64,000 bases of DNA, taken from the IMG/VR virus record IMGVR_UViG_3300009151_000031. One strand, 5' to 3'. Positions 39,326 through 54,761 of the stretch are shown here, one piece after another. The position numbers and the translations under genes were made by a program. The DNA is from a virus. Position 1 is the stretch's first letter. The number at the start of each line of letters is the position of its first letter. The notes under the pieces are model-generated. The model was not told where the DNA came from. It did not search any database and saw only the letters and a list, made by a program, of their open reading frames with translations.

Positions 39326-39478
39326 GCGACTGTGGTGAAATAATGCCCGGGTGATGAAATGGTATACATAGAAGACTTAAAATCTTCCGTCTGTAATGGG
39401 CATGCCGGTTCGAGTCCGGCTCCGGGCACCAAGTTAGTTTGCGATGGTATGCCGGTTCGATTCCGGCCAGTCGCACCA
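39326..39478 (+). pseudogene. Split tRNA-Leu-like remnant enclosing an intact tRNA
   Basis: GCGACTG at 39326 pairs with CAGTCGC-ACCA at 39468-39478. T arm at 39451-39467. No anticodon arm of its own. Confidence 0.65.
39345..39431 (+). tRNA. trnL: tRNA-Leu(TAA), long variable arm
   Basis: gaaga-ctTAAaa-tcttc arm, CCA. Confidence 0.93.
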
Positions 39479-39541
39479 ATTAATCTAGCCCAAACGGGCT
39501 AAAATGATAAATAAAAGTAAGAACTTCAGGAGATTTCCCAC

Positions 39542-40513
39542 ATGAATCAACCACGTAAAATCCGTTGGCTATTAGAACACGAACCAGTTGAGCTTTTCTT
39601 ACGCACAGCTAAAGAGTTTGACAAGCGTATTCGCGCTCTAACAAACGACGAAATCCAAGTAGAAATGTATAAAAAAGAAGAATACCAAGCTAAATTTGGT
39701 GTTGCTAAAGAAATGATGGATTCAGTAGGCCTAATGCACTCTGGCGATATTGAAATGACTCAAACACAAATCGGCAACGTTGGTCAGTGGTACTGCCCAG
39801 ATTTCTTTGCATTAGAAATGCCATTCTTGTTTGATAGCCATGAACACGCTACTCGTGTTCTTGATGGCCAAATTGGTGAACGCCTATTAGACACCATTGA
39901 GCAAAATGCAAGTGCCAAAGGTTTAGCATTTACATACTCAGGTGGTTATCGTGTGTTTGCATCCAATGACAAACTAACAACAGCCGAAGACTTAAAAGGT
40001 CTAAATTGTTTGACTGACATCAGTGCAGTTCGTATTGATACAGCCAAAGCATTTGGTTTAAATGTAGTTCCATTCAAAGATGCCACCTTAGAAGGCGGTC
40101 AAATTGAGATTCTAAATGATCGTTACGAAGCAAGCCAAACACGTGAAACAACATTGCCACGTTATGAAGCCGAAGCGTACCATGCAGGTCATCACCACAT
40201 TGGTGTTACTAACCACAGCATGTACTTGACTACTATTCTAGTTAACAAAGAGTTCTTTGCAAGTTTAACAGCGGACCAACAGGTCGCAATGAAACAAGTT
40301 GCTATGGAAGTTGCCAAGTTAGAGCGTGAATGGTCGGTGACTGATGCAGACACATTGGCTAACAACACAGTTAAACACGCTGAAATGGGTATTACCTATA
40401 CAGAGTTTGCTGATAGCGAAGTGGCCAAATTGAAACAAGCAGTTGAGCCATTGTACGAAAAATATCGTGCGATTTTTAGCCCATTGCTGATTGATAACAT
40501 TCGCTCTGCCTAA
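39542..40513 (+). CDS. TRAP DctP-fold solute-binding-like protein, copy 1 (no signal peptide)
   Basis: ALEMPFLFDS.EHA.RVL.G.IG, GLAFTYSGGYR, EDLKGL. gaTAAATA at 39506-39513. Confidence 0.8.
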   Translation: MNQPRKIRWLLEHEPVELFLRTAKEFDKRIRALTNDEIQVEMYKKEEYQAKFGVAKEMMDSVGLMHSGDIEMTQTQIGNVGQWYCPDFFALEMPFLFDSHEHATRVLDGQIGERLLDTIEQNASAKGLAFTYSGGYRVFASNDKLTTAEDLKGLNCLTDISAVRIDTAKAFGLNVVPFKDATLEGGQIEILNDRYEASQTRETTLPRYEAEAYHAGHHHIGVTNHSMYLTTILVNKEFFASLTADQQVAMKQVAMEVAKLEREWSVTDADTLANNTVKHAEMGITYTEFADSEVAKLKQAVEPLYEKYRAIFSPLLIDNIRSA

Positions 40514-40521
40514 TTAGCCCT

Positions 40522-41145
40522 TTGAAGTATCCTGAAAAACAATTCGAGTTGTATGACAAGAATTGTTTTTCTACGACTAGCTGGCAAGAAATATTTTCTG
40601 GACGTAGAGTTCTGATTTGTTCTATTGTGCGTCCTCCTTTGTGTTTTAATCAAAATTATATAATAGATTTACAAATTTACAGAGAAATGTACAAGTTGCT
40701 TGGGGTAGATGAAGTCTACTTACTAAGCCGTTCTCGTCTTGGATTAGTCAGTTTATTAAATCGAACAACAATACCTTGCATGGCAGATGTAAATTCAGAA
40801 TTTGCATTGCATTTGAACAGTCTGGTCAATACAAAAGAATACAGTAAAAATCATTTGTCATCGTTCTGGGCATATCAGGTATTAATCAACGACGGCGAAG
40901 TGGAACAGATCACACAACAACCTCTAGAAAATTATCTGGCCACCATGCTCAAGGATACCAAGAACATTGCCGCACTTAAAGCAATTGGATTAAAAAACGA
41001 AAAGTTAATTTGGACACCGACTTTTTTGACACGAACTATTAAATTGGCCAGAGACATTTTTTACTACCGATTGCACCCAAACATCGAGCTCAAAAAACAT
41101 TTATTCTCAACTTATCCAAACATACTTGACAATAAAGATAAATAA
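40522..41145 (+). CDS. Peroxiredoxin-5/redoxin-fold protein, degenerate, copy 1
   Basis: RRVLICS...GVDEVYLLS...MADVNSEF...VLINDGEV. TTG start. Confidence 0.5.
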   Translation: MKYPEKQFELYDKNCFSTTSWQEIFSGRRVLICSIVRPPLCFNQNYIIDLQIYREMYKLLGVDEVYLLSRSRLGLVSLLNRTTIPCMADVNSEFALHLNSLVNTKEYSKNHLSSFWAYQVLINDGEVEQITQQPLENYLATMLKDTKNIAALKAIGLKNEKLIWTPTFLTRTIKLARDIFYYRLHPNIELKKHLFSTYPNILDNKDK

Positions 41146-41154
41146 ATGTATAAT
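41126..41154 (+). promoter_or_regulatory. Sigma70 consensus promoter
   Basis: TTGACA-17-TATAAT, with TAAATA inside the spacer. Confidence 0.85.
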
Positions 41155-41164
41155 TGATAACATT

Positions 41165-41293
41165 ATGACACTAAGAACTTGTAAACATCTACCATCCATA
41201 CAGCCAACACTAGGTATGTTAGCCTATTGGCCTGCGAATGAAGTGTTTACATCAATTAATAGTGATCGTGAATACAGAGAGGGTCTCAATTAG
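41165..41293 (+). CDS. Putative 42-aa leader peptide
   Basis: MTLRTCKHLPSIQPTLGMLAYWPANEVFTSINSDREYREGLN*. Starts about 10 nt after the -10 box and ends inside a hairpin arm. Confidence 0.45.
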   Translation: MTLRTCKHLPSIQPTLGMLAYWPANEVFTSINSDREYREGLN

Positions 41294-41351
41294 AGTATTG
41301 TAGTTTACCATATTTTAATCGAGACCCTGGACTAAACACCCAGGGTTTTTT
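41281..41351 (+). terminator. Attenuator-like antiterminator/terminator pair
   Basis: gggtctc(41281)/gagaccc(41321) stem overlaps the ccctgg(41325)/ccaggg(41340) terminator, followed by a T run. Confidence 0.65.
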
Positions 41352-41370
41352 GTTTATAAAGGAGAAAGAA

Positions 41371-41547
41371 ATGTCGCATAAAATTAATAAAAATGAGTAT
41401 TCGCAATTTATTCTTTCCCGTGAAGAAAAGGTTGCATTAATGGAAGCAAAAATTGCAAGAGCGGAAGCTCAAGTAAAGGCGTTAGCAGAAATTGTAAAAG
41501 TAAAAGCAAAGGAATCTGCAAGGGGGTCGAAATACACCTCACGCTGA
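41371..41547 (+). CDS. Small basic coiled-coil protein
   Basis: MSHKINKNE...SR* with AAGGAG RBS. Confidence 0.55.
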   Translation: MSHKINKNEYSQFILSREEKVALMEAKIARAEAQVKALAEIVKVKAKESARGSKYTSR

Positions 41548-41965
41548 TAAATGGATTGAGGTTATGTTAAGTACAGGCACGTTTTTTTCGTGTACTATAT
41601 TTGATAAACCTGAGTAAGTGTGTAAAGAGGAAACGAGGTCCTCGCTGGGCACTATAAACATCTAGCAAACGGGCGGACAGGATACATAAAAGCCGGGCGA
41701 TAACCGGTTAGTAAGACTCCTGGGTAGGGTACTATCCCTATCATATCCTGTAGCAATACAGGGTATTCTAAAGCATATTAGATGAGAGCGTCCAAAGGTC
41801 CTGAACACCTTGTGGGACAGGGCACAGGAATCACCGTGACACTAGTATGTTTTATAATACCCTTTAGAAGAACACGCCCAAGCACCGCACCGATAAAGCG
41901 GACTGCCAGAGCAACCGTCACATAAACGGCCGCTGTTATCCAACACAGCAACTAAAGGGTAGACT
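41548..41965 (+). ncRNA. Candidate large structured ncRNA
   Basis: No credible ORF, many stems (see findings), directly 5' of tRNA-Tyr. Confidence 0.5.
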
Positions 41966-41970
41966 TATAT

Positions 41971-42055
41971 GGAGGAACGGCGCAGATGGCGGGGCGCGGC
42001 AGACTGTAAATCTGTTCTCTAGGGCTAGTTGGTTCGAATCCATCTTCCTCCACCA
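41971..42055 (+). tRNA. trnY: tRNA-Tyr(GTA), atypical D arm
   Basis: ggaggaa/ttcctcc acceptor, gcaga-ctGTAaa-tctgt arm, CCA. Confidence 0.85.
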
Positions 42056-42136
42056 CAAATCCTGAATTTTAATAAATATATTGAGCAGTATTTCAAATTG
42101 CACATAAATACATAATAAAATCCCAGGAGATTGTTG

Positions 42137-43084
42137 ATGCAAAAAACAAATAAAATTAAGTGGCTAATCGCACACGAGCCGGTACATCTTTTCTTACGTA
42201 CAGCAGAAGCATTTGCCGCTGATGTTAAAGCAAAAACCAACGGTGAGATTGATATTGAAATTTATACAGCAACAGAATATGCCAATAAATTCCACAATGG
42301 TCACAAAGAAAACCCATTGACACATATGGAAAATGGCACGTTAGAGATGAGCCAATTGCATATCAGTCAGTTATGGAAATACAATGCTCCATCATTTATG
42401 GCTCTTGAAATGCCATTCTTGTTTAGCGATCATGACCATGCTACCCGTGTATTGGAAGGCAACATTGGTCAAGACATGCTAGCAAGTTTGAAAGAAAAAT
42501 CACCAGCACGTGGACTAGCGTTCACATACAGCGGCGGCTATCGTGTCATGGTCAGTGATACCGAAGTTAACGAAATAGCTGACTTCCGTAATATGAAGTT
42601 CTATACAGGCACAAACCCAATTGGTATGGATACTATCGAAGTTATCGGTGGCCAACCCGATCCACACGCTATTGACCATTTTTGGCACAGCGTTACTGCT
42701 AATGGTATCAAACACGATGCAATCGATACAACAATTCCACGTGTTTTAGCCACAGTTGACAAACTAAGCAAGCGTTTTATCACTGACACCAAGCACAGCA
42801 TGTTTTTGACAAGCATTATTGTTAGTGAAGCATGGTGGAACACACTAAGCGAAGAGACAAAAGAAATTTTGGCCACTGCCGCAACCGATGCCGCACGTTT
42901 AGAGCGTAAGTGGTCAGTTGAAGACAGCAACCATGTTATTGCCAATGCTGTAGAATTGGGCTTAGAATATAAAGAACTAAGCAAAGAAGATCAATCCAAG
43001 TTCCAGGCACTAACAGAACCATTGTACCAAAAGTATGAATCTATGTTTATGCCAGGTTTAGTTAACGGAATTATCCGCGGTTAA
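42137..43084 (+). CDS. TRAP DctP-fold protein, copy 2 (no signal peptide)
   Basis: WLIAHEPVHLFLRTA, ALEMPFLF, GLAFTYSGGYR. TAAATA boxes at 42071-42078 and 42103-42110. Confidence 0.8.
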   Translation: MQKTNKIKWLIAHEPVHLFLRTAEAFAADVKAKTNGEIDIEIYTATEYANKFHNGHKENPLTHMENGTLEMSQLHISQLWKYNAPSFMALEMPFLFSDHDHATRVLEGNIGQDMLASLKEKSPARGLAFTYSGGYRVMVSDTEVNEIADFRNMKFYTGTNPIGMDTIEVIGGQPDPHAIDHFWHSVTANGIKHDAIDTTIPRVLATVDKLSKRFITDTKHSMFLTSIIVSEAWWNTLSEETKEILATAATDAARLERKWSVEDSNHVIANAVELGLEYKELSKEDQSKFQALTEPLYQKYESMFMPGLVNGIIRG

Positions 43085-43090
43085 TAATCG

Positions 43091-43119
43091 TTGCAATAGT
43101 TTTAGTTTTAGTATATAAT
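43091..43119 (+). promoter_or_regulatory. Sigma70-type promoter
   Basis: TTGCAA-17-TATAAT. Confidence 0.6.
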
Positions 43120-43127
43120 CAGACTCT

Positions 43128-43580
43128 ATGAAAGATAATCTTTTAGAGTCTGATTCCTTTTGTGCAAAACGAATTCTGGTATTTGGTATTAATAGAATTC
43201 AAAGCCATCCTACAATAGATCATGTTAAGACCATTGATGCTATGCACGATGAATTTTTAGCACATGGCATAGACGAAATACATTTTATTTCTATTTGTGA
43301 TTTTTTATTGTTTGATCCAATGATGACCAAATTGGCACCACATTGCAAGTCTACTCAATTGACTGATACAACAGCGTTACAAAAAATGTTCAGTAAAAAA
43401 GGTCATCCTAGATACCTTTGTGAATATTGGCAGTTTGCAGCCGTTGTTAATAAACAACAGGTCGAATTCTATGCAGAGCAACCGTTTGTGGCAAAGTTTG
43501 GCCCAGACACCAGAGCTGATATTTATAGCAACGTGAGTGCAGAAAAAGTTCTAGCATGGTTGTCCAATAAATCAGTTTAA
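43128..43580 (+). CDS. Peroxiredoxin-5/redoxin-fold protein, degenerate, copy 2
   Basis: KRILVFG...HGIDEIHFISICD...YWQFAAVVN...EQP. Confidence 0.5.
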   Translation: MKDNLLESDSFCAKRILVFGINRIQSHPTIDHVKTIDAMHDEFLAHGIDEIHFISICDFLLFDPMMTKLAPHCKSTQLTDTTALQKMFSKKGHPRYLCEYWQFAAVVNKQQVEFYAEQPFVAKFGPDTRADIYSNVSAEKVLAWLSNKSV

Positions 43581-43631
43581 TGTACAATTGATACATCAAG
43601 TAAGAAATTACACGCTCTTTAAAAATTTAAA

Positions 43632-43756
43632 CCATAGAACCCTGTGAAGGGTGCTATACAAAAATACACAATGACCAAACTCGGGTTCATCCGTGAGGTC
43701 AAGTAATTGATCCTATATCTTGTGTATTTTTGTATAGTCGAAAGAATTGGCACCCT
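43632..43756 (+). ncRNA. Candidate structured RNA / inverted-repeat element
   Basis: Perfect 18-bp IR 43654-43671/43720-43737 inside a gggtgc/gcaccc stem. ccc-tgtgaa-ggg hairpin. Confidence 0.45.
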
Positions 43757-43828
43757 AAGAAGTCCATTAGAGGCCTGACGCCCCTGTAAATCAATCAATA
43801 CTGTTTACGAACCGGGTCACTAAATTTT

Positions 43829-43905
43829 GGAGAAGTAGCTCAGTTGGTTAGAGTGCCTGCCTGTCACGCAGGAAGTCGCGGGTTCGAGTCCCGTCTTTTC
43901 CGCCA
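43829..43905 (+). tRNA. trnD: tRNA-Asp(GTC)
   Basis: Cloverleaf, CCA. Confidence 0.95.
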
Positions 43906-43909
43906 AATT

Positions 43910-43985
43910 GCTCGGTTCGTCTATCGGTCTAGGACACCGCCCTTTCACGGCGGGAAGAGGGGTTCGATTCCCCTACCGAGTACCA
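43910..43985 (+). tRNA. trnE: tRNA-Glu(TTC)
   Basis: Cloverleaf, CCA. Confidence 0.95.
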
Positions 43986-43992
43986 ATGTTAT

Positions 43993-44067
43993 GCAGGATT
44001 AATTCAGTGGTAGAATGTCTCGTTGCCAACGAGAATGTCAGGAGTTCGACCCTCCTATCCTGCTCCA
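43993..44067 (+). tRNA. trnG: tRNA-Gly(GCC)
   Basis: Cloverleaf, U discriminator, CCA. Confidence 0.93.
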
Positions 44068-44073
44068 AGTTAG

Positions 44074-44149
44074 GTATCCTTAGCTCAATTGGCAGAGCGT
44101 TGGTCTCCAAAACCAAAGGTTCGCGGTTCGAGGCCGTGAGGGTACGCCA
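44074..44149 (+). tRNA. trnW: tRNA-Trp(CCA)
   Basis: ttggt-ctCCAaa-accaa arm, G discriminator, CCA. Confidence 0.93.
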
Positions 44150-44276
44150 AGTTAGGTTTGTATAGTAGCTACAATGGAACACCGAGACACTTGCCAAAGT
44201 CGACTAATGCAAGGACCGGCCATGAAGAGTAGGGCTACCTCAGGTTCAAGCACTGAATACAAACACCCAATCCTAA

Positions 44277-44350
44277 GCGGGATTAGTTTAATGGTAAAAC
44301 AGCAGATTTCCAATCTTCGGTCAAGAGTTCGATTCTCTTATCCCGCTCCA
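44277..44350 (+). tRNA. trnG: tRNA-Gly(TCC)
   Basis: Cloverleaf, one anticodon-stem mismatch, CCA. Confidence 0.9.
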
Positions 44351-44359
44351 TTTTAACAT

Positions 44360-44563
44360 ATGACATTAAACGATTTAAAAGAAAAAGACCAGGCAGTGAT
44401 ACTCAGTGTCACCAACGAGCGTTTACAGCAAATGGGTCTTGTTCCTACAAGAACTGTAACTGTTTTAAGACGCATGGCCTGTTGTCTTCACATACGTGTG
44501 GGTTCCACTGAATGGGCCATACGTGATCAAGACGCTCAGTCAGTAACGATTATTCCCCGATAG
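44360..44563 (+). CDS. feoA: FeoA-like SH3-fold protein
   Basis: MTLNDLK...RLQQMGLVP...V.VLR...IRVG...AIR..DA..V matches the FeoA pattern. Stop codon lies inside tRNA-Asn. Confidence 0.65.
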   Translation: MTLNDLKEKDQAVILSVTNERLQQMGLVPTRTVTVLRRMACCLHIRVGSTEWAIRDQDAQSVTIIPR

Positions 44564-44628
44564 CTCAGCGGTAGAGCAGTAGACTGTTAATCTATTGGTC
44601 GGTGGTTCGATCCCACCTTGGGGAGCCA
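44554..44628 (+). tRNA. trnN: tRNA-Asn(GTT)
   Basis: Cloverleaf, CCA. Confidence 0.95.
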
Positions 44629-44635
44629 AAATCAT

Positions 44636-44713
44636 ATAGCGGTGGCAGAGTGGTCAATTGCACGGGATTGCAAATCCCGAAAACCGTGAGTTCAAATCTC
44701 ACCCGCTATTCCA
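44636..44713 (+). tRNA. trnC: tRNA-Cys(GCA)
   Basis: cggga-ttGCAaa-tcccg arm, U discriminator, CCA. Confidence 0.93.
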
Positions 44714-44726
44714 ATAAATCTTTTTA

Positions 44727-45050
44727 ATGTATAATAGGTATATGATGAATAAATTAATCCGTGATGGTCAAGTTGCTGTACTAGTAAGTCCAGGATATGG
44801 TGCTGGCTGGTACTCGTGGCATTCAATTGAAGAACTGGTCTACGATCCTAGCATAGTAGAGTGGTTAGAACAAGGTGAAATGCCAAAAATTCAAGCATAC
44901 TTGGCCTTAAAATACAAAGATGAGTATTTTGGTGGCCTAGAAGATTTAGTAGTAATGTGGGTACCTGAAGGAGCTCGGTTTCGTATTAAAGAATATGACG
45001 GAGCAGAGAGCTTGGTACTTGAATCACAAGAACGCTGGATGACAGCATAA
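44727..45050 (+). CDS. Hypothetical protein
   Basis: VAVLVSPGYGAGW...FRIKEYDGAE, coherent 107-aa ORF. Confidence 0.65.
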   Translation: MYNRYMMNKLIRDGQVAVLVSPGYGAGWYSWHSIEELVYDPSIVEWLEQGEMPKIQAYLALKYKDEYFGGLEDLVVMWVPEGARFRIKEYDGAESLVLESQERWMTA

Positions 45051-45059
45051 GGAGGCCGT

Positions 45060-45524
45060 ATGTCCTGGATTGAAAATGTAGCGGCTGTAGATGTGTCTAG
45101 CGGATTCCATCATGCGGCTGGTCCTAACAGTATGCTGATTAGTATTGCTGACTGTGGTAGTTGGCGCCCAGAATCAAAGCACGAATTCAAGGAGCGTCAC
45201 AACTTTGAGTTTCTTGATATTGAGCTTAACGATTTTGCTTTAGAAGAAGCAATGCGTTGTAGCCAAGAGCAAGCAGATGAATTAGTTCGTTTGCTACAAC
45301 ATGCACTGGCTAATCGTATGAATGTGGTTGTACATTGTACCGCTGGCATTTGTAGATCCGGTGCAGTAACAGAAGTTGGAGTTATGTTAGGTTTTGATGA
45401 TACTGAACGGTTTCGTAGTCCTAATTTGTTAGTAAAACATCGTATGATGAAAGCCCTTGGGTGGACATACAATGAAAACGAAAAGCCAAACATTGATGAC
45501 TGGCGTACTTTTAGGAGTGTCTGA
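45060..45524 (+). CDS. Dual-specificity / protein-tyrosine phosphatase family protein
   Basis: VVHCTAGICRS (HCxxGxxR) active-site loop. Confidence 0.85.
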   Translation: MSWIENVAAVDVSSGFHHAAGPNSMLISIADCGSWRPESKHEFKERHNFEFLDIELNDFALEEAMRCSQEQADELVRLLQHALANRMNVVVHCTAGICRSGAVTEVGVMLGFDDTERFRSPNLLVKHRMMKALGWTYNENEKPNIDDWRTFRSV

Positions 45525-45721
45525 TGACAATTAATGCTATTTCACAATATAATAATAAAATATTTAATTTGATGGCTGTAAAGCAGTTGGATTTTAGACA
45601 TGAAGAACTTCGCTTAGAAGCAGTTCGAGTAAAAGAACAGCTTGAAGAAAATGAGCAAAAACGAATTGAAATGAATCGCCGGATGAATCGGCCCGGACAA
45701 AATGTTGATAAACTAGCGTAA
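45524..45721 (+). CDS. Hypothetical protein
   Basis: 65-aa coupled ORF. Confidence 0.5.
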   Translation: MTINAISQYNNKIFNLMAVKQLDFRHEELRLEAVRVKEQLEENEQKRIEMNRRMNRPGQNVDKLA

Positions 45722-45743
45722 CTCAAATTGAAAGGAGTATAAT

Positions 45744-46346
45744 ATGCCAGCAGTATTTTTAGTAAGCGACACGCACTTTGGTCATGCCGGTGTATGCCGT
45801 TTTACCCGCAACGATGGTGTTACAAAACTTCGCCCATGGGATGATGCAGACGAAATGGATGAATTCATGGTCAAGGCCTGGAACGAACGTGTTCGTCCTA
45901 ACGATAAAGTTTATCACTTAGGCGATGTAGTTATTAACCGTAAAAGTCTTGCTATTATGCGTAGGCTCAACGGGGATAAAGTTCTTATCCGTGGTAACCA
46001 CGATATCTTTAAGGACACTGACTATCGTGAACATTTCCGTGAACTTCGTGCATACCATGTGATGAATGGAATGATTCTTAGTCACATTCCTGTACACGTA
46101 GAGTCACTTGGTCGGTTTGGTGTTAACATTCACGGACACTTACACGCAAATCGTGTTAAGAAAATTCGTGGAGTAAACGCCAAGACAGGTGAACTTCTGT
46201 ACAGTGATGAACCAGATGTACGCTACCATTGCGTATGTGTGGAGCAAACTGACTTTGCACCTATTCTGTTTGAAGATGTTATCAAACGTATTGAAGCAGA
46301 AGGTGGTTCCGTGGGTTTCCGTAACGGTAACGGCCCTACGATGTAA
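45744..46346 (+). CDS. Calcineurin-like metallophosphoesterase
   Basis: SDTHFGH, HLGD, RGNHD, LSH.P, HGHLH motifs. Confidence 0.92.
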   Translation: MPAVFLVSDTHFGHAGVCRFTRNDGVTKLRPWDDADEMDEFMVKAWNERVRPNDKVYHLGDVVINRKSLAIMRRLNGDKVLIRGNHDIFKDTDYREHFRELRAYHVMNGMILSHIPVHVESLGRFGVNIHGHLHANRVKKIRGVNAKTGELLYSDEPDVRYHCVCVEQTDFAPILFEDVIKRIEAEGGSVGFRNGNGPTM

Positions 46347-46406
46347 GAACAGTCTTGGACACGCAGACTTTAAAGCGAGGTGGGAGTAGGTGGAAGCCCT
46401 GCATCT

Positions 46407-46515
46407 ATATAAAAACACATCTATGATCTGGGATATGCGAATGCGTACATATAAACTAAGATCCCACTTGTTAGTGGGTACGGGAGTGGGAATCTCCCTA
46501 GGTGTGTTTCTATAT
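46407..46515 (+). ncRNA. Inverted-repeat-bounded structured element
   Basis: atataaaaacacatcta / taggtgtgtttctatat stem with internal cccac/gtggg and ggga/tccc hairpins, abutting tRNA-Met. Confidence 0.4.
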
Positions 46516-46590
46516 GGAAATATAGCACAGCGGTAGTGCATCGCCTTCATACGGCGCAGGTCAGTAGTTCAAATCTACTTATTTCCACCA
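46516..46590 (+). tRNA. trnM: tRNA-Met(CAT), elongator type
   Basis: G1-C72, ttCATac loop, CCA. Confidence 0.8.
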
Positions 46591-46594
46591 ATTA

Positions 46595-46673
46595 CGGAGT
46601 GTAGGAAAGTCTGGCTTAATCCGCCTCGTTTGGGACGAGGAGACCGAAGGTTCGAATCCTTCCATTCCGACCA
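46595..46673 (+). tRNA. trnP: tRNA-Pro(TGG)
   Basis: Cloverleaf, CCA. Confidence 0.93.
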
Positions 46674-46678
46674 TATAT

Positions 46679-46754
46679 AGGACTTTAGCTCAGTTGGTAG
46701 AGCGTCTGCCTTACACGCAGAATGTCGTCAGTTCGAACCTGGCAAGTCCTACCA
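46679..46754 (+). tRNA. trnV: tRNA-Val(TAC)
   Basis: Cloverleaf, CCA. Confidence 0.95.
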
Positions 46755-46757
46755 TTT

Positions 46758-46833
46758 GCCCCTATAGCTCAGTTGGTAGAGCACCGCCTTGATAAGGCGT
46801 AGGTCCCTGGTTCGAGTCCAGGTGGAGGCACCA
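46758..46833 (+). tRNA. trnI: tRNA-Ile(GAT)
   Basis: Cloverleaf, one acceptor mismatch, CCA. Confidence 0.92.
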
Positions 46834-46837
46834 ATAT

Positions 46838-46914
46838 CGGCCTTTAACTCAATTGGATAGAGTGCAAGTCTTCGAAACTTGAAGTTGGGAGTTCGAATCT
46901 CTCAGGGCCGGCCA
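46838..46914 (+). tRNA. trnR: tRNA-Arg(TCG)
   Basis: caagt-ctTCGaa-acttg arm, CCA. Confidence 0.93.
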
Positions 46915-46920
46915 AATTAC

Positions 46921-46996
46921 AGGACGTTAGCTCAGCCGGTAGAGCAGTAGACTTTTAATCTATTGGTCGTGGGTTCGATCCCCGCACGTCCTACCA
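46921..46996 (+). tRNA. trnK: tRNA-Lys(TTT)
   Basis: Cloverleaf, CCA. Confidence 0.95.
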
Positions 46997-46998
46997 AT

Positions 46999-47074
46999 GC
47001 TACTTTAGCTGATGTGGTCATAGCGGCGGTTTGAAGAACCGTTGAACTAGGTTCGATTCCTAGAGGTAGCACCA
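46999..47074 (+). tRNA. trnF: tRNA-Phe(GAA)
   Basis: Cloverleaf, CCA. Confidence 0.92.
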
Positions 47075-47083
47075 AATTATTGT

Positions 47084-47157
47084 TGGGGGTTAGTGTAGCG
47101 GTAACACTACAGACTTTGACTCTGTCATCACTGGTTCGATCCCAGTACCCTCTGCCA
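47084..47157 (+). tRNA. trnQ: tRNA-Gln(TTG)
   Basis: acaga-ctTTGac-tctgt arm, CCA, unpaired 1:72 position. Confidence 0.9.
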
Positions 47158-47163
47158 AATTAC

Positions 47164-47238
47164 CTCGCCTTAGTATAATGGATAATACAGTAGGCTTCTA
47201 CCCTACGAATGTGGGTTCGATTCCTGCAGGCGAGGCCA
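47164..47238 (+). tRNA. trnR: tRNA-Arg(TCT)
   Basis: Cloverleaf, CCA. Confidence 0.93.
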
Positions 47239-47244
47239 AACAAT

Positions 47245-47320
47245 GGTGACTATAGTGTAAAGGTTAACACCACGGATTGTGATTCCGTTAATATGGGTTC
47301 GATTCCCATTAGTTACCCCA
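47245..47320 (+). tRNA. trnH: tRNA-His(GTG)
   Basis: Encoded G-1 and C discriminator, CCA. Confidence 0.93.
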
Positions 47321-47328
47321 ATCAATAT

Positions 47329-47406
47329 ACCCCTGTAGGCAAATTGGTAAAGCCAACTCTCTTAAAAGGAGTAGTCTTCCCTGTTCGAATCAGGGCAGGG
47401 GTACCA
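47329..47406 (+). tRNA. trnL: tRNA-Leu(TAA), short variable loop
   Basis: acccctg/caggggt acceptor, actct-ctTAAaa-ggagt arm, 6-nt variable region, CCA. Confidence 0.8.
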
Positions 47407-47411
47407 ATCAA

Positions 47412-47501
47412 GGAAGTGTGTCTGAGTCCGGCTTAAGGAAACAGTCTTGAAAACTGTCGGCTGTAAAAGGTCCGTGGGTTCGAATCCCACCGCTTCCGCC
47501 A
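47412..47501 (+). tRNA. trnS: tRNA-Ser(TGA)
   Basis: Long variable arm, CCA. Confidence 0.93.
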
Positions 47502-48803
47502 TTAATAAATGCTTAACTTGCCTTCGATGCAATGCAAGTATCGTGTTTGATCGTTCTTAAAATCCTGCGCTTTAACTGCGCCAGTACTAGGAATACTACT
47601 GTCACCGATGTAATACATTGGACTAATGTATTGCTTAAGGTCTCGTAATTGTCCGTCTAGAGTTTTTGTAATGTATCTAGCATCTAAGTTAGTAGACATA
47701 AATTCTACACCGGCTTCCCAAATCTGATATTGTTTAGTATCGATAAAATTTTGAAAGAACCAATTATCCATTTCTGCTCTGATGCCGGTAGTAGGTTTAG
47801 CAACTTGGAAGGTATTAAAGTCATAGTCGGGATAAACAATAGCACGTACAAGACCTTCGTACGTAGTGCGGTTATAGTGATCGCCATTGGGCCAGCGTAC
47901 AGCACTTTGGAAATTATAATGCATGGGCATTTCAAACCATTGTCGTACCATGTGTGCTTGTTTAGTTAACATTGCACAACTATCTGGTGACCAGTAAAAC
48001 AGTTCTGTTGTCACATTGGTAATATCACCCATGTCTGCGCTGTTGTGATTAGCAAGTGGATCTTGGAAATACAAGAACCACCGACAGTCTTTGACACACA
48101 GCTTGGGTTTATCGCAGCCAAATACCATGGCAATACGTATATTGCAATCAACCAAGTTCTTTTGTTCTGCACTACTGGCCACAGTATGCTTTGACCATTG
48201 TCCAGGCTGTAATGCATGACGAGTGCGAAAGATCCAAGACTCATCTGTACCTTGACGATCGATCAAATCGTCTGTGTAATCGTGTATGGTAATTTTTGTA
48301 GCAGGATAGTTTGCGGCAATCCAATTCATTATTGGTTTGACAGCAAAATCAAACTCGCTGAGATGATTGGCAGAACTGGTATCCCAGGGATTGCCTGATG
48401 CGTTTTTATCTGCTTGTTTTGGGTAACGATAGATAACTTCGTCTAAGTGTATTCCGTTAAGCAAAAACGCAAATGCTACTGTGGCACTATCGGCACCACC
48501 GCTTAACTCTAGACGTACATAGTCATAGTTATCGCGAATAGATTGTGCGCGACGTCGATACAGTTCACGTATATCTTCTTCGGGCTCAATATGCCAGGCA
48601 TGTTTTAAGAATACATCTTCGTTAAATAGCCAGCGCACAGGATCGTTATTGAGATTGTGTGCATGACCGGGAAGTTTTGAACCAGCTAAGATTGCTTGGT
48701 TTTTATTATAAAATACTTCATTACCTAAAGTATAGTAGCCAAGTTTTTTGTTTGGTTCAAATTTAATACCACCTGCAGAGGTGTGTTCAATTTTAGGTAG
48801 CAT
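47502..48803 (-). CDS. PP-loop (N-type ATP pyrophosphatase; asparagine-synthetase-like) protein
   Basis: LELSGGADS PP-loop, FGCDKP. Reverse TAAATA at 48840-48845. Confidence 0.65.
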   Translation of the reverse strand: MLPKIEHTSAGGIKFEPNKKLGYYTLGNEVFYNKNQAILAGSKLPGHAHNLNNDPVRWLFNEDVFLKHAWHIEPEEDIRELYRRRAQSIRDNYDYVRLELSGGADSATVAFAFLLNGIHLDEVIYRYPKQADKNASGNPWDTSSANHLSEFDFAVKPIMNWIAANYPATKITIHDYTDDLIDRQGTDESWIFRTRHALQPGQWSKHTVASSAEQKNLVDCNIRIAMVFGCDKPKLCVKDCRWFLYFQDPLANHNSADMGDITNVTTELFYWSPDSCAMLTKQAHMVRQWFEMPMHYNFQSAVRWPNGDHYNRTTYEGLVRAIVYPDYDFNTFQVAKPTTGIRAEMDNWFFQNFIDTKQYQIWEAGVEFMSTNLDARYITKTLDGQLRDLKQYISPMYYIGDSSIPSTGAVKAQDFKNDQTRYLHCIEGKLSIY

Positions 48804-48829
48804 AGTTGATTATAACAGATAAGTAAGTG

Positions 48830-48858
48830 TTGACGCAAGTATTTATTTAATATATAAT
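48830..48858 (+). promoter_or_regulatory. Sigma70-type promoter
   Basis: TTGACG-17-TATAAT. Confidence 0.7.
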
Positions 48859-48879
48859 ACATCAATAATGAAAGGTGAT

Positions 48880-49023
48880 ATGAGCCATAACGACACACTC
48901 AATCGAGCATACGGTAATATCCCAAAAGAAGTCGGATACACAGTTGACTTCAGTTTCATGCCATTTCATCGCCCAGTTAAGTATTTTTGGCTTACCTGGA
49001 TTGTAAGAAAGTTTTTTAGATAA
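48880..49023 (+). CDS. Small hypothetical protein (47 aa)
   Basis: MSHNDTLNRAYGNIPKE...FFR*, AAAGGTG RBS, not in the ORF track. Confidence 0.45.
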   Translation: MSHNDTLNRAYGNIPKEVGYTVDFSFMPFHRPVKYFWLTWIVRKFFR

Positions 49024-49028
49024 TCTAA

Positions 49029-49103
49029 CGCGGGGTACGTCAGTGGTAGACCGCCAGGCTCATAACCTGGAAGACGGAGGTTCGAATCCTTCCCCCGCAA
49101 CCA
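49029..49103 (+). tRNA. trnfM: Initiator tRNA-fMet(CAT)
   Basis: C1:A72 mismatch, CGCGGGG acceptor, CCA. Confidence 0.88.
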
Positions 49104-49106
49104 AAT

Positions 49107-50186
49107 ATGTTACACCTAATACTACACCCATTAAAACGCCCAGCCGAAAAACAAGTTGATCTACTTGTTGCAACCTTAGACATGCACGGAATTGATTACG
49201 TTAAATGTAGTATTGACAAGGTTCCAGCAGGAGCCACAATCATCACAGATTGTTTTATAATGGAAACTCCTTGTGGAGATCCGGGCAATGATATTGCTAG
49301 TAATATTATAGATCATGCCGCAAGTCACAATAACAAAATTGTATTTTATTATCCTAGCGAAAGCTACGCAACATTATCGGCAAGTTTTTGCCCTACCGCA
49401 GAAGCAATACAAGAAAAAAATGTCAAGGGATATTTAGTAAAGTGTGGTGACTGGGATATAGATGGTTACGTAAAAAATTATAACATGCCAGAGTTTTTTG
49501 CATGGATACTTAATAATGAATTTAATCGTACCAGATTAGACTATACACACAGTCTGATAGATACTATGACAAAGTCACACAAGTTCCTATTCTTTAACGG
49601 AGAGTTCCGCAACAATAGAGAACGCTTCTTTGAATTGTTTAAAGAGGCTGGATTACTTGAATCAAGTATATGGAGTCATAGGTCGGGCAAGAGTGCAGAA
49701 GGCTTCGGTCCTGACAAAGATTGGCCGGATCCATTTATACATCCAGACTTTAGATTTTATGCATATTATCCTAGTCATTATTATGACACTAGTATAAGCA
49801 TTGTGAGTGAAACTACACAAACAGAATTCTTCCCTACGGAAAAGACCTATAAGAGTTTAATGCTAGGACATCCATTTGCTGTGTATGGCGGGCAACATAG
49901 TCTACGTAAACTGCAAGCATTAGGATTTGAAACGTTTGGCGATAGCATAGATGAAACGTATGACAACTGCGAGTGGCCAGAAGAACGTGCCAATGTTCTA
50001 ATAGAAAGTCTAAAAAATTGCAGTATTCCACGACCCAGTAACCATAATAGGCTACAATTTCAGAAAGTGGCTAATTCAGCATACAATCATCTGTTAAATA
50101 TCTTGCAAGATATAGATAATAATGTTATAATAAAAGAGAACTTTGCAGTCAGTAGTTCTGTTTTGAACAAGTATTTTTTAAATTAA
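49107..50186 (+). CDS. GT10/GT-B-like protein (TEKT family, copy 3)
   Basis: FLFFNG..R.NR...IVSET...FPTEKTYK...HPF.VYGG..L..LGFETF. Confidence 0.45.
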   Translation: MLHLILHPLKRPAEKQVDLLVATLDMHGIDYVKCSIDKVPAGATIITDCFIMETPCGDPGNDIASNIIDHAASHNNKIVFYYPSESYATLSASFCPTAEAIQEKNVKGYLVKCGDWDIDGYVKNYNMPEFFAWILNNEFNRTRLDYTHSLIDTMTKSHKFLFFNGEFRNNRERFFELFKEAGLLESSIWSHRSGKSAEGFGPDKDWPDPFIHPDFRFYAYYPSHYYDTSISIVSETTQTEFFPTEKTYKSLMLGHPFAVYGGQHSLRKLQALGFETFGDSIDETYDNCEWPEERANVLIESLKNCSIPRPSNHNRLQFQKVANSAYNHLLNILQDIDNNVIIKENFAVSSSVLNKYFLN

Positions 50187-50195
50187 AGGATTACA

Positions 50196-50423
50196 ATGCC
50201 ACAGTACATCAGCCGCGGAGCATCAATTGACACAGAAAAATGTGTTGCAGAAGCAGGTGGAAATAGATTTGATTTAGTCATTATGGCCACTCAACGTGCC
50301 AGAGAAATTAAACAACGTAATCAACATAGTGTAAAGCATGAGCATCTACATGGTGTAGTTACAGCACTAATAGAAATACAAGATGGTAATGTAGATCCCA
50401 ATTGGAAACAAAAAGTTCGATGA
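50196..50423 (+). CDS. rpoZ: RNA polymerase omega subunit homolog
   Basis: GNRFDLVIMATQRAREI...ALIEIQDG matches NRFDLVLVAARRARQ...AL.EI..G of RpoZ. AAAGGA RBS. Confidence 0.8.
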   Translation: MPQYISRGASIDTEKCVAEAGGNRFDLVIMATQRAREIKQRNQHSVKHEHLHGVVTALIEIQDGNVDPNWKQKVR

Positions 50424-50857
50424 AACCAAAGTTTCAACAGCTATATATAACTATAGCAAGTACAGTAGCAACAATGAGTACAGCACGTCGCCTACAAGTT
50501 GGTGCTATTGTGGTCAAAGATGATCGTGTTATTAGTATGGGCTACAATGGTATGCCTAGTGGGTGGGACAATAATTGCGAAGATGAAATATGTTGGCCCA
50601 ATGGGGAAATAAAGTTTTTAACAACTAAACCGGAGGTACTTCATGCTGAAACTAATGCAATCGCTAAGTTGGCAAGATCAAACGAGTCTGGCCTTGGTGC
50701 TACTATGTTCATTACTCACTCACCTTGCTTGGACTGTGCCAAATTGGTTTACCAATCTGGTATCAATACTGTTTATTATCGCAATAGTTATCGTAACGAA
50801 GAAGGCATACAATTCCTGGAAAAAGCAGGAGTAGAAGTAGTAAAATTAGAAGATTAA
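50420..50857 (+). CDS. cd: dCMP deaminase
   Basis: VGAIVVKD..ISMGYNG..HAETNAI..SPCLDC. Start at ATGA overlap. Confidence 0.93.
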   Translation: MKPKFQQLYITIASTVATMSTARRLQVGAIVVKDDRVISMGYNGMPSGWDNNCEDEICWPNGEIKFLTTKPEVLHAETNAIAKLARSNESGLGATMFITHSPCLDCAKLVYQSGINTVYYRNSYRNEEGIQFLEKAGVEVVKLED

Positions 50858-50858
50858 C

Positions 50859-50934
50859 GGGGGTGTAGCTCATTTGGGAGAGCGCCTGCTTTGCAAGCAG
50901 GATGTAGCAAGTTCGATCCTTGTCACCTCCACCA
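50859..50934 (+). tRNA. trnA: tRNA-Ala(TGC)
   Basis: G3:U70, CCA. Confidence 0.95.
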
Positions 50935-50940
50935 AAATAA

Positions 50941-51028
50941 GGAAAGTTGGCCGAGTGGTTAAGGCAACGGTTTGCTAAACCGTCGTCCCGAAAGGGGCGC
51001 ATAGGTTCGAATCCTATACTTTCCGCCA
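50941..51028 (+). tRNA. trnS: tRNA-Ser(GCT)
   Basis: Long variable arm, CCA. Confidence 0.95.
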
Positions 51029-51093
51029 AATTGTATCAAAAAAGTGTAAACGACAATAAATAAGTACATATACACTTACCAGGAGTTTCCCCC

Positions 51094-52059
51094 ATGAGTC
51101 AAACACGTACAATACGTTGGGTTTTATACCACGAACCAGTTGATTTGTTTTTGCGTACAGCCAAGGCATTCAGCGAAGAAATCGCTCGTACAACCAACGG
51201 CCGTTTAGCAGTTGAAATTTTAACAACACAAGAGTTTGCTGACAAATACAACAAAGATGCTGGCCTAGAACCATTGACTTGGATGCAGTCAGGCGATGCA
51301 GAAATGACACAAGTTCAAGTTGTGCATTTAGGTATTTGGCATGCTCCAGAGTTTTTTGCACTGGAATTGCCATTCTTGTTTGATAGTCACGAACATGCTA
51401 CTCGCGTACTAGAAGGAGATATTGGTGAAACTATGCTAGGCGATCTAGATAGCAAGACTCCGGTACACGGTTTAGCATTCACATATTCAGGCGGTTATCG
51501 TTGTTTAGCACTCGACCGTGAAATTAGTAAAGCTGAAGATCTTCAAGGTCTTAAGATGGTGACTAATACAAACCCAGTATCAATTGATACAGCAGAAGCA
51601 TTTGGATGCGTTGCAGTACCAGTCAATCTAAAAGAAGCAGTAAACGTTAATAGAAACAACGACAACAATCACAACGGCAACAACGCAATCGAAACAACAT
51701 TGCCACGTTATGAAAAAGAAGCCAAGAGTGCAGTACATACACACGTAAGCAATACACGTCACAGCATGTATCTAACAAGTATTTTAATTAGTAAGGACTT
51801 CTGGGCAAGTTTAAGTGCAGAAGATCAAGCGTCTATCAAGGCAGCGGCAATGCACAGTTCTGCATTAGAACGCCATTGGACTGTTAATGATAGTGCCAAG
51901 ATTGCTAACAGCACAGAAGAACAAGCTAAAATGGGCATTAGTTATACTGAGTTTGCTGATAGCGAACGTGCTAAATTAAAAGAATTAGTACAGCCAATGT
52001 ACAACAAGTATCGCCAAATCTTTGGCGTTGATCTAGTAGATGGAATTATCAAGGGATAA
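51094..52059 (+). CDS. TRAP DctP-fold protein, copy 3 (no signal peptide)
   Basis: WVLYHEPVDLFLRTA, ALELPFLFDSHEHA, GLAFTYSGGYR. aaTAAATA at 51055-51062. Confidence 0.8.
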   Translation: MSQTRTIRWVLYHEPVDLFLRTAKAFSEEIARTTNGRLAVEILTTQEFADKYNKDAGLEPLTWMQSGDAEMTQVQVVHLGIWHAPEFFALELPFLFDSHEHATRVLEGDIGETMLGDLDSKTPVHGLAFTYSGGYRCLALDREISKAEDLQGLKMVTNTNPVSIDTAEAFGCVAVPVNLKEAVNVNRNNDNNHNGNNAIETTLPRYEKEAKSAVHTHVSNTRHSMYLTSILISKDFWASLSAEDQASIKAAAMHSSALERHWTVNDSAKIANSTEEQAKMGISYTEFADSERAKLKELVQPMYNKYRQIFGVDLVDGIIKG

Positions 52060-52707
52060 ATGAAAGACTTTAGTTTTTCAATTCTTAAAAATAACGAAGT
52101 ACAAAAAATAACATTCCAGGACTTAGCCTTAAACAAGCGAGTCCTGGTTTGCTCTGTTGTCCGTATGCAAACCCATGTTTCGGATTTGTATGTTAAAGAA
52201 TTAATTAAGCAAACTACTAGTTACAAACAACAAGGCATTGACGAAGTTTATCTAATAAACTCATGCCATGGACTATTTGCACTTGCAAGATTTGATAAGA
52301 TATTTCCGGAAATTACAATGTTAGCAGATACTGATAATCAATTTGTAACGTGGATTAGTAGTACGGTAAACAAAGCTACGCAGACTATAGATAATTTATC
52401 AAAGTATTGGAGTTATCAAGTACTACTGAACAATGGCAAAATAGAGCAATTTTACGAACAGCCAACTGAAAATTATATTAGACATTTAATTAAGGCTGGA
52501 CACAAACCAAATTTGGCACACCAAAAGTTTTTTATAACCGAAGGCGACACAGTTGCATTACATCGCCCTGGGTTAAGTAGAGAAGAACAAAATACATTTG
52601 GACATTTGCCATTTGATGGTGCTCGGTGTACTCCGTTGGAGTTTATGTATTTTAATCTTTGTCCAAACACTAAATTAAATCAATATTTGCTTGACACACA
52701 GGTGTAA
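52060..52707 (+). CDS. Peroxiredoxin-5/redoxin-fold protein, degenerate, copy 3
   Basis: KRVLVCS...QGIDEVYLIN...MLADTDNQF...YWSYQVLLNNGKIEQFYEQP. Confidence 0.55.
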   Translation: MKDFSFSILKNNEVQKITFQDLALNKRVLVCSVVRMQTHVSDLYVKELIKQTTSYKQQGIDEVYLINSCHGLFALARFDKIFPEITMLADTDNQFVTWISSTVNKATQTIDNLSKYWSYQVLLNNGKIEQFYEQPTENYIRHLIKAGHKPNLAHQKFFITEGDTVALHRPGLSREEQNTFGHLPFDGARCTPLEFMYFNLCPNTKLNQYLLDTQV

Positions 52708-52719
52708 CTAGTATATAAT
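52691..52719 (+). promoter_or_regulatory. Sigma70 consensus promoter
   Basis: TTGACA-17-TATAAT. Confidence 0.85.
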
Positions 52720-53955: not shown

Positions 53956-54120
53956 ATGTTTGAATCACTAGAAATCCGCAGAGTTGCAAATGGTTTTATT
54001 TTGGTAGTTAATACCGAAGAAGATGCCACTGAGTTTGTGTACGATACTGAACGCAAATTAATGCGTGTAGTTAAACAGTACCTTGGAGAGCGTGTAAGCA
54101 AGGATGAGTTGGCTGATTAA
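53956..54120 (+). CDS. Small hypothetical protein (54 aa)
   Basis: MFESLEIRRVANGFIL...LAD*, AGGAG RBS, TAATG coupling to the next gene. Confidence 0.6.
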   Translation: MFESLEIRRVANGFILVVNTEEDATEFVYDTERKLMRVVKQYLGERVSKDELAD

Positions 54121-54761
54121 TGAGTATTGCCGATTATTTAACAAATAACCCGGTTGCTAAATTACAACTAGGGTGTGGTGGTAATATGTTGCAGGGCTGG
54201 TGCAATACCGATGGTCAAAGTGACGGCTGGTATCATCCCAACGGGATCAAGTTAGATGCCAGTAAGCCTTTTCCCGTTGCCGACGATAGTTTTGATTATG
54301 TATTCAGCGAGCACATGATTGAGCATCTTGATTATTGGGCCGGGTACCGTATGCTAGAAGAATCATTTAGGGTAATGAAACCAGGCGCTCGTATTCGTAT
54401 CAGTTGCCCGTCAATTGATTTGCTCATGCAAATTTGCGCCGATAAAGAGCATCCTGACCATCGAGCCTACATTGAATTTTTATTAAATGAACCCGACAAA
54501 GAGCCTTTTGTGGATACCATGTTTATCTTTAATAAAATGTTTAGATTTTGTGGGCATACACATATCTATACTAAAACAGGTTTAGTAACTACCATGGAGG
54601 CAGTTGGGTTTGCGGACTTCAGTGAACATAAGATCATTGAAAGCAACGATCCTAACTTGGCAGGATTAGAAAAAGTTTGGCACATGCCTGACTTTGATGG
54701 ACATAACAGTCGTATCCTGCAAATGGAAACTATGACAATAGAAGCAGTTAAGCCAAAATAA
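54120..54761 (+). CDS. Class I SAM-dependent methyltransferase
   Basis: LQLGCG, FDYVFSEHMIEH, RVMKPGA. Confidence 0.85.
   Translation: MSIADYLTNNPVAKLQLGCGGNMLQGWCNTDGQSDGWYHPNGIKLDASKPFPVADDSFDYVFSEHMIEHLDYWAGYRMLEESFRVMKPGARIRISCPSIDLLMQICADKEHPDHRAYIEFLLNEPDKEPFVDTMFIFNKMFRFCGHTHIYTKTGLVTTMEAVGFADFSEHKIIESNDPNLAGLEKVWHMPDFDGHNSRILQMETMTIEAVKPK

Follow-up and report, generated by a model that had tools for sequence, protein, structure and literature searches.

The 64,000-nucleotide (nt) stretch of viral DNA in IMG/VR record IMGVR_UViG_3300009151_000031, hereafter the window, carries three copies of a two-gene module within positions 39506-52707. In each copy, a gene for a DctP-fold protein without a leader is followed by a gene for a peroxiredoxin-fold protein that has lost its catalytic residues. 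The DctP fold is that of the solute-binding proteins of TRAP (tripartite ATP-independent periplasmic) transporters, which are periplasmic. We put the chances at about even that the module products form a late-expressed cytoplasmic pair, in which the DctP-like "flytrap" binds a small metabolite and the pseudo-peroxiredoxin (pseudo-Prx) serves as its cognate partner, whether for docking, for recognition or for some new chemistry; a tie of this unit to PP-loop enzymes is probable. This leaderless phage family, its subclade lacking the binding-site Arg and the partner derived from Prx5 are new, in that they were not described in the literature searched; the folds themselves are known.

An earlier note on this DNA had reported three DctP-like open reading frames (ORFs), each behind a late-type box and a CAGGAG ribosome-binding site and each followed by a paralogous partner ORF. 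All six ORFs, and both signals before each DctP-like gene, were located as follows:

39507-39513, + strand: ATAAATA late-type box, with a CAGGAG Shine-Dalgarno sequence at 39527-39532, upstream of DctP-like 1
39542-40513, + strand: DctP-like 1 (P0001, 323 amino acids), leaderless, Leu in the Arg column (GLNCL), PF03480 E 3e-35
40522-41145, + strand: pseudo-Prx5 partner 1 (P0004, 207 amino acids, type a), TTG start, phrog_2281 E 1e-7
42104-42110, + strand: ATAAATA box, with CAGGAG at 42124-42129, upstream of DctP-like 2
42137-43084, + strand: DctP-like 2 (P0002, 315 amino acids), leaderless, Tyr in the Arg column (NMKFY), PF03480 E 2e-42
43128-43580, + strand: pseudo-Prx5 partner 2 (P0005, 150 amino acids, short type c, FGINRIQSHPT), phrog_2281 E 5e-8
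51056-51062, + strand: ATAAATA box, with CAGGAG at 51080-51085, upstream of DctP-like 3
51094-52059, + strand: DctP-like 3 (P0003, 321 amino acids), leaderless, Val in the Arg column (GLKMV), PF03480 E 8e-35
52060-52707, + strand: pseudo-Prx5 partner 3 (P0006, 215 amino acids, type b), ATG abutting the DctP stop codon, phrog_2281 E 4e-10

The ATAAATA boxes are 20-31 nt upstream of where the DctP ORFs start, and the CAGGAG sequences precede the ATG by about 9 nt. Partners 1, 2 and 3 start 8, 43 and 0 nt past the DctP stop codon and have no ATAAATA box of their own. The orthologs of partner 1 (P0007-P0019) likewise begin LKYPEKQF, and those of partner 2 (150-153 residues) come after DctP-like proteins of 315-316 residues. 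The partner motifs listed in the earlier note, (K/R)R(V/I)L, G(V/I)DE(V/I), (F/Y)W.(Y/F) and (E/Q)QP, are present. Each module would be a two-gene operon read from a T4-late-like ATAAATA box, with the second gene translationally coupled to the first.

On the + strand of the window, ATAAATA occurs at 18 sites against 17 expected and is not over-represented; for 13 of the 18, a gene start follows at a distance of 5-52 nt, among them the starts of the tail sheath, tail tube and other structural genes. A TAAATA box precedes all 21 distinct related genes of the partnered subclade (type II, defined below), in leaders that are otherwise unconserved, and 20 of the 21 have a Shine-Dalgarno sequence. 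Because of this conserved box, shared with structural genes, and the Shine-Dalgarno sequences, the modules look like late, strongly translated genes. The same signals, together with a leaderless state that fits cytoplasmic assembly, would also suit virion-associated or ejected proteins, made late, packaged or displayed without export and able, when the next host is infected, to bind sugars or acids on its surface or inside it. However, the modules lie in a tRNA and accessory region outside the structural block, their products have no anchoring domain and match no PHROG structural family, and the binding-site Arg that acid sugars require is gone, so that we regard this role as decidedly unlikely.

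The three DctP-like proteins score 121-146 bits against Pfam PF03480 (cut-off 23.4) and 85-120 bits against NF037995 (cut-off 50); against TIGR00787 they reach 98-113, below the cut-off of 175. The AlphaFold (AF2) model of P0003, with a predicted local distance difference test (pLDDT) score of 91.8, aligns along its entire length with TRAP binding proteins in Foldseek searches, the best match being 4p47 (template-modelling (TM) score 0.83, E 6e-25), followed by SiaP and IseP. Two alpha/beta lobes, a hinge and a long spanning helix are all present in the model, whose sole low-confidence loop is an Asn-rich insertion in DctP-like 3, NVNRNNDNNHNGNN (window 51634-51678, P0003 residues ~181-195).

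The N-termini of P0001, P0002 and P0003 (MNQPRKIRWLLEHEP…, MQKTNKIKWLIAHEP… and MSQTRTIRWVLYHEP…, respectively) start eight residues ahead of the first strand and contain no hydrophobic leader. These ORFs were called from the first start codon after a stop and therefore cannot be extended upstream. Of the 122 members of the clade, about 110 are leaderless, and 109 begin 8 residues ahead of an invariant Trp. A mis-called start that hides a leader was considered and rejected: in the few relatives with longer N-termini, the canonical start position is still occupied by a Met, now internal, and a hydrophobic core is missing. Phage TctC-type binding proteins and bacterial members of the same DctP clade do bear classical signal peptides, and since the TctC-type proteins of related phages keep theirs, the absence of a leader from the DctP-like proteins is not an annotation artefact. 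Two such TctC/Bug-type genes of related phages are L005:12677-13585 and L037:4372-5349; the first is followed by genes for unknown proteins of 391 and 213 amino acids and an AMP-binding enzyme.

A tblastn search with a Bacteriovorax TRAP operon found no DctQ or DctM in the window, as had been noted earlier, and the window has no ORF with multiple transmembrane segments; DctQ and DctM are also missing from G001, a CheckV-complete relative of 374 kb. Since it has neither a leader nor a DctQM partner, the first gene product, a complete DctP-fold Venus-flytrap protein, would stay in the cytoplasm of the infected cell. Membership in the DctP family, and the Joint Genome Institute (JGI) annotation of relatives as TRAP substrate-binding proteins, could instead suggest auxiliary transport, with the protein reaching the periplasm and boosting a host TRAP transporter. 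This explanation is close to refuted: there is no leader, whereas the TctC proteins of related phages have classical ones; the Arg is lost; DctQM was found neither in the window nor in the complete 374-kb relative; and even the exported bacterial relatives are orphans, three of the five genomes of this kind that were checked having no DctM.

The Arg through which TRAP binding proteins clamp carboxylates is lost in all three proteins. In a profile alignment to 4p47 and 4pdd, the canonical GLKIRT/GLKVRT faces G-L-x-x-(L/Y/V)-T, with Leu, Tyr and Val in DctP-like 1, 2 and 3. Across the closest 122 protein clusters the clamp column is never Arg, and W9, H13, P15, F19 and A23 are present in all. 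The cleft signature H13, Q73, Y131, S132, R136, R205 and H223 (P0003 numbering), common to exported bacterial proteins, is intact in type II, whose only fixed switches relative to the exported relatives are A22T, the lost Arg and one Ser-to-Thr change. E14, too, belongs to the clade's signature and is kept. Because the signature is intact, ligand binding is probably retained in type II with altered specificity. The earlier note had proposed that these proteins have no signal peptide, open with the first beta strand and have lost the GLKIR Arg, and all three points are borne out. Its further proposal, that W-x3-HEP-x2-LFLRTA is a new motif, stands in part: W-x3-HEP is common to exported bacterial relatives, and only the LFxRTA variant and the missing Arg are specific to the partnered phage subclade.

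The partner proteins P0004-P0006 match only PHROG 2281, "peroxyredoxin antioxidant" (E 1e-7 to 4e-10). They have no match to Pfam Redoxin or AhpC-TSA and nothing meaningful in PADLOC or NCBIfam, and a feature-based search gave only weak Redoxin/AhpC leads. The expected thioredoxin/peroxiredoxin fold is supported by the AF2 model of P0006 (pLDDT 85), whose best Foldseek matches are of Prx5 type (1nm3, 1tp9, 3uma, 4f82 and 2wfc), with a probability of 1.0 and TM scores by target of 0.62-0.64. In a profile alignment to HI0572 (1nm3), PGAFTPTC is replaced by V-R-x-x-x-H-x-S. The former active-site loops of the three partners read VRMQTHVS, VRPPLCFN and NRIQSHPT, none of which is PxxxTxxC, and no Cys is conserved across 40 members of the partner family. 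The catalytic Arg of the Prx5 motif RSWRY is likewise replaced, by Ser, Ala or Gln, in the partners' (F/Y)W(S/A/Q)(Y/F). Thus, GAFTPxC is absent from all three, as had been claimed, and this alignment shows the WRYS Arg replaced along with the loop. Residues R35, D61, L113, W117 and L206 are invariant, including a new Arg at the start of the old active-site loop.

An exhaustive profile search retrieved 214 representative clusters for the partner family at E ≤ 1e-3 and 99 at E ≤ 1e-10. The ranking grades from Cys-less partners (…CS(I/V)xR…, (F/Y)WxYQ…NNG..E) into genuine Prx5 enzymes (FSLPGAFTPTCS…RSWRYA), and because it passes from the one type into the other, these sequences indicate that the partners are Prx5-derived pseudo-enzymes. 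The second gene has accordingly kept the scaffold and lost the peroxidatic Cys and Thr as well as the catalytic Arg. Less sensitive searches said little: tblastn of P0006 gave weak matches to cyanophage peroxiredoxins only, a single-sequence scan of IMG/VR with P0006 gave nothing, and phrog_2281 missed the partner of G001, which is present, a failure of sensitivity and not an absence.

These features would also be compatible with a two-component enzyme, in which the pseudo-Prx has a new, thiol-independent catalytic activity that uses the invariant R35, D61, W117 and E129 and receives its substrate from the DctP-like protein as delivery subunit, with the modification of DNA, tRNA or a glycan as an example. 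The new invariant Arg at the old active-site loop, very strong purifying selection, wider-family neighborhoods rich in small-molecule enzymes and the position of the modules among tRNA and nucleotide-metabolism genes speak for it. Yet the partners contain no catalytic motif of any known thioredoxin-fold enzyme, their conserved residues could be structural or interfacial, and most of the C-terminal region that types a and b possess is missing from the short type c. We therefore hold such an enzyme to be rather unlikely, if worth keeping in mind.

The conservation of the pair was examined in IMG/VR, where 423 stretches encode relatives of the DctP-like protein; 80 of these loci were fetched for neighborhood analysis. 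A partner lies directly downstream of 29 DctP-like genes in these loci (profile match E 1e-15 to 1e-78, gaps of -23 to +71 nt). The Arg is absent from all 29 partnered DctP-like proteins and kept in 51 of the 65 unpartnered ones. Among the partners, subtypes a, b and c and an intermediate form of 170-180 residues can be told apart, and every subtype is matched to a DctP subtype of its own. Two relatives, 240 and 360 kb in size, share a gene order of cytidylyltransferase-cupin, a 494-amino-acid protein, rubrerythrin and rubredoxin, then two modules (DctP with a 202-residue partner and DctP with a 153-residue partner), GNAT and metallophosphatase; the complete 374-kb contig G001 has one pair, DctP with a 207-residue partner. 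Measured against a 94%-identical ortholog in L008, the ratio of nonsynonymous to synonymous substitution rates is 0.07 for DctP-like 1 and 0.045 for partner 1, values by which both module proteins are under purifying selection.

In a mirror-tree comparison, the distances between pairs of DctP-like proteins track those between their partners (r = 0.83), and none of 2000 permutations gave more than 0.26. As linked genes share their history, this value speaks for duplication and divergence as a unit, not for contact. The survey thus agrees with the view that the two folds were kept paired and duplicated together, given the adjacency in many phage contigs, the cognate subtypes, the correlation and the coupled loss of Arg. 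The pairing had also been taken to be undescribed, and literature searches found no description of it or of a leaderless phage DctP ("DctP" mostly retrieves dCTP).

Two variants were seen in relatives. In G001, a second, more divergent leaderless DctP-like gene is followed by a gene for a 231-residue rubrerythrin/ferritin-like protein in place of the pseudo-Prx (L003:749-1444, - strand). In L019:2989-3940 and L035:2982-3939, a DctP-like gene is split into two adjacent ORFs of ~160 amino acids just upstream of an intact type-II module.

The leaderless phage DctP-like proteins split in two. Type II has LFxRTA, no Arg and a partner (29 of 29); type I has LFxRAA, keeps …(K/R)xRTS and comprises 51 of the 65 partnerless genes. 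Neither type was found in cultured phages in GenBank, where tblastn with P0002 returned only bacterial-type DctP on contaminant or mislabelled records, and BFVD holds only two half-length DctP-like proteins, both from uncultured phages. Cellular relatives, examined in 55 loci of species-representative genomes, are overwhelmingly from Bdellovibrionota, the others from Elusimicrobia, myxobacteria, the Candidate Phyla Radiation and metagenome-assembled genomes (MAGs) of Rickettsiales. They bear classical signal peptides and mostly keep the Arg, and the partner adjoins none of the 55. The bacterial clade genes are not next to DctQM, and 3 of the 5 genomes checked, which are MAGs, have no DctM at all. 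Some members sit in operons for NMT1-type ABC importers; in a Bacteriovoracaceae MAG, an exported DctP-like gene of the HEP clade closes such an operon of binding protein, ABC ATPase and permease (L089:3290-6930).

The modules are thus a derived branch of a large leaderless phage DctP-like family. The type I/type II split and the exported, Arg-bearing bacterial relatives point to a likely order of events: an exported orphan binding protein would have lost its leader in phages, then lost the Arg and gained the pseudo-Prx together, and the pair would then have been triplicated.

The neighborhoods of type I suggest in what kind of pathway the family acts. They contain small-molecule enzymes, i.e., GT2/HtrL, Rieske and 2-oxoglutarate oxygenases, GNAT, hydrolases and a ferritin-like protein. 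A protein of ~378 residues with an invariant SGGIDST PP-loop and weak PDB matches to GMP synthase and LarE is the commonest neighbor, present in 27 of 51 loci; the second commonest, in 12 of the 51, is a family of 411-433 residues. A profile of the 378-residue family matches no ORF of the window, which does encode a member of the second family:

47502-48803, - strand: 433-amino-acid protein of the 411-433-residue family, SGGADS PP-loop motif at residue 100

This protein is 35-36% identical to relatives at L050:6955-8253 (E 4e-84) and L041:2804-4036 (E 6e-89), and its gene has a syntenic copy in L006. It has no Pfam match and no significant match among solved structures. The gene lies 2-4 kb away from the modules and on the strand opposite to theirs, so that only association links the two; a functional connection of the protein with them is possible.

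The earlier note had suggested a sponge for immune signalling molecules as one use of the pair. A cytoplasmic, high-affinity flytrap fold with diversified paralogs and a strong Shine-Dalgarno sequence could suit sequestration of the signalling nucleotides of CBASS, Thoeris or Pycsar. Literature searches returned no phage immune-signal sponge (the class of Tad1, Tad2, Acb2 and Acb4) with a binding-protein fold, a point that does not count against the idea. A late-type promoter is the wrong timing against early abortive-infection signals, however, and the wider family lies beside biosynthetic enzymes and not beside anti-defence genes. The cleft signature is common to exported bacterial binding proteins of nutrient type. 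No likeness to any known sponge was seen. We judge a sponge of this kind to be very improbable, and because the late-type box is shared with sheath and tube and the family is associated with PP-loop ATPases, we favor the handling of metabolites over an early anti-defence role.

In the cytoplasmic pair that we propose, the flytrap would capture and hand over a small metabolite of a kind other than the simple carboxylates, and the pseudo-Prx would recognize or process the loaded flytrap. The three anciently diverged modules would serve three ligands, the probable pathway being one of biosynthesis or metabolism that is connected with PP-loop (adenylating) enzymes, and not one of import. That the two proteins bind each other, that the flytrap binds a ligand and that the pair is linked to a pathway is what we infer from these comparisons. 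A more specific version is offered only tentatively, as something we doubt more than we believe: flytrap and dead peroxiredoxin may associate as a cognate heterocomplex, take up specific metabolites of host or phage when infection is at a late stage and either pass these to PP-loop adenylating enzymes of a modification pathway or sequester them, with three specificities per genome that predate the divergence of this jumbo-phage group.

Several observations weigh against the proposed pair. The mirror-tree correlation and the conserved adjacency are also expected of genes that are merely linked, and no fused DctP-Prx form occurs among 1.84 billion representative proteins. No active site was identified in the pseudo-Prx, and the PP-loop gene of the window is on the opposite strand at the distance given above. 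The two genes might, then, be independent and simply travel together, the DctP-like protein buffering or sequestering a metabolite alone and the pseudo-Prx being unrelated to it; most leaderless phage DctP-like proteins (type I) do manage without a partner, and the missing fusion protein fits here as well. We nonetheless find independence unlikely, since Arg loss and partner are coupled in 29 of 29 cases, there are three cognate subtype pairings, the stop and start codons overlap or abut, and the partner is absent from all 55 bacterial loci.

The window itself is part of an undescribed jumbo myovirus. A GC content of 40% and the link to Bdellovibrionota are leads, no more, to its host. It also contains genes for the tail tube and for a large terminase that is at most 54% identical to GenBank relatives (PA5oct-like Pseudomonas phages), in addition to the following:

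14086-17328: tail sheath gene

Megablast of the module region against GenBank phages gave tRNA matches only. The modules lie inside a tRNA/accessory region with 27 tRNA genes between 38914 and 53074. The tRNA genes at 39345-39431 (Leu-TAA), 41971-42055 (Tyr) and 50941-51028 (Ser-GCT) precede DctP-like 1, 2 and 3, respectively; each DctP-like gene starts 65-110 nt past a tRNA gene, so that tRNA units flank every module. Sigma-70 promoters that match the consensus perfectly (TTGACA-17-TATAAT, 12/12) occur at 41126-41154 and 52691-52719; the two overlap the last codons of partners 1 and 3 and point into ORF-free stretches before the next tRNA. Accessory enzymes around the modules are, in order, a cytidylyltransferase-like and cupin fusion (36563-37297), a dual-specificity phosphatase (45060-45524), a metallophosphatase (45744-46346), a dCMP/cytidine deaminase (50402-50857) and an S-adenosylmethionine (SAM) methyltransferase (54120-54761). 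Just upstream of module 1, relatives have a rubrerythrin and a 42-residue rubredoxin (L005:6316-6884), and the window has tRNA-Met, tRNA-Leu and tRNA-Leu at this place.

Taken together, these data describe a leaderless TRAP-type binding protein that is kept under strong selection in hundreds of uncultured phages. One phage lineage appears to have dropped the Arg that defines substrate recognition in TRAP systems at the same point as it gained a dead peroxiredoxin as obligate neighbor, and then to have triplicated the pair. The two undescribed families have diagnostic motifs, LFxRTA without Arg in the one and Arg for PGAF, in a pseudo-Prx5, in the other. They provide a concrete case of two scaffolds repurposed together and a testable entry into small-molecule handling by large phages inside the cell. 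The bacterial sister clade of orphan exported DctP-like proteins, concentrated in predatory Bdellovibrionota, is itself uncharacterized.

Among known systems, the TRAP solute-binding proteins (Oant_4429, 4p47; Haemophilus influenzae SiaP; IseP, 8t9t) have the same two-lobe flytrap fold and spanning helix, with TM scores of 0.75-0.83. Like these proteins (PF03480, NF037995), the phage DctP-like proteins have the Arg of GG(Y/F)R and the majority of the scaffold motifs. Unlike them, they have no signal peptide and no DctQM, the Arg at the position of SiaP R147 is replaced by Leu, Tyr or Val, and they are phage-encoded behind a late-type box with a pseudo-Prx partner. Prx5 proteins of the type II/atypical 2-Cys class (the hybrid Prx5 HI0572, 1nm3; poplar PrxD, 1tp9) share with the partners the fold and the scaffold motifs GxDE and W.Y…NNG..E; the partners differ from them in lacking the PGAFTPxC loop, with its peroxidatic Cys and Thr, and the RSWRY Arg, in the new invariant Arg where the loop starts and, in types a and b, in having an extra C-terminal helical region. 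The closest cellular relatives, at 32-40% identity, are the exported W-x3-HEP orphan DctP-like proteins (L088-L129), which share W9, H13, E14, P15, FTYSGG(Y/F)R, R205 and H223 with the phage modules and are likewise not next to DctQM, but have signal peptides, in most cases still contain the Arg (…K(I/V)RTS) and lack the pseudo-Prx as a partner. Type I proteins belong to the same clade, start 5-8 residues before the Trp and are confined to phages, as is type II, from which they differ in keeping the Arg, in having no pseudo-Prx partner and in having PP-loop ATPase families as their usual neighbors.

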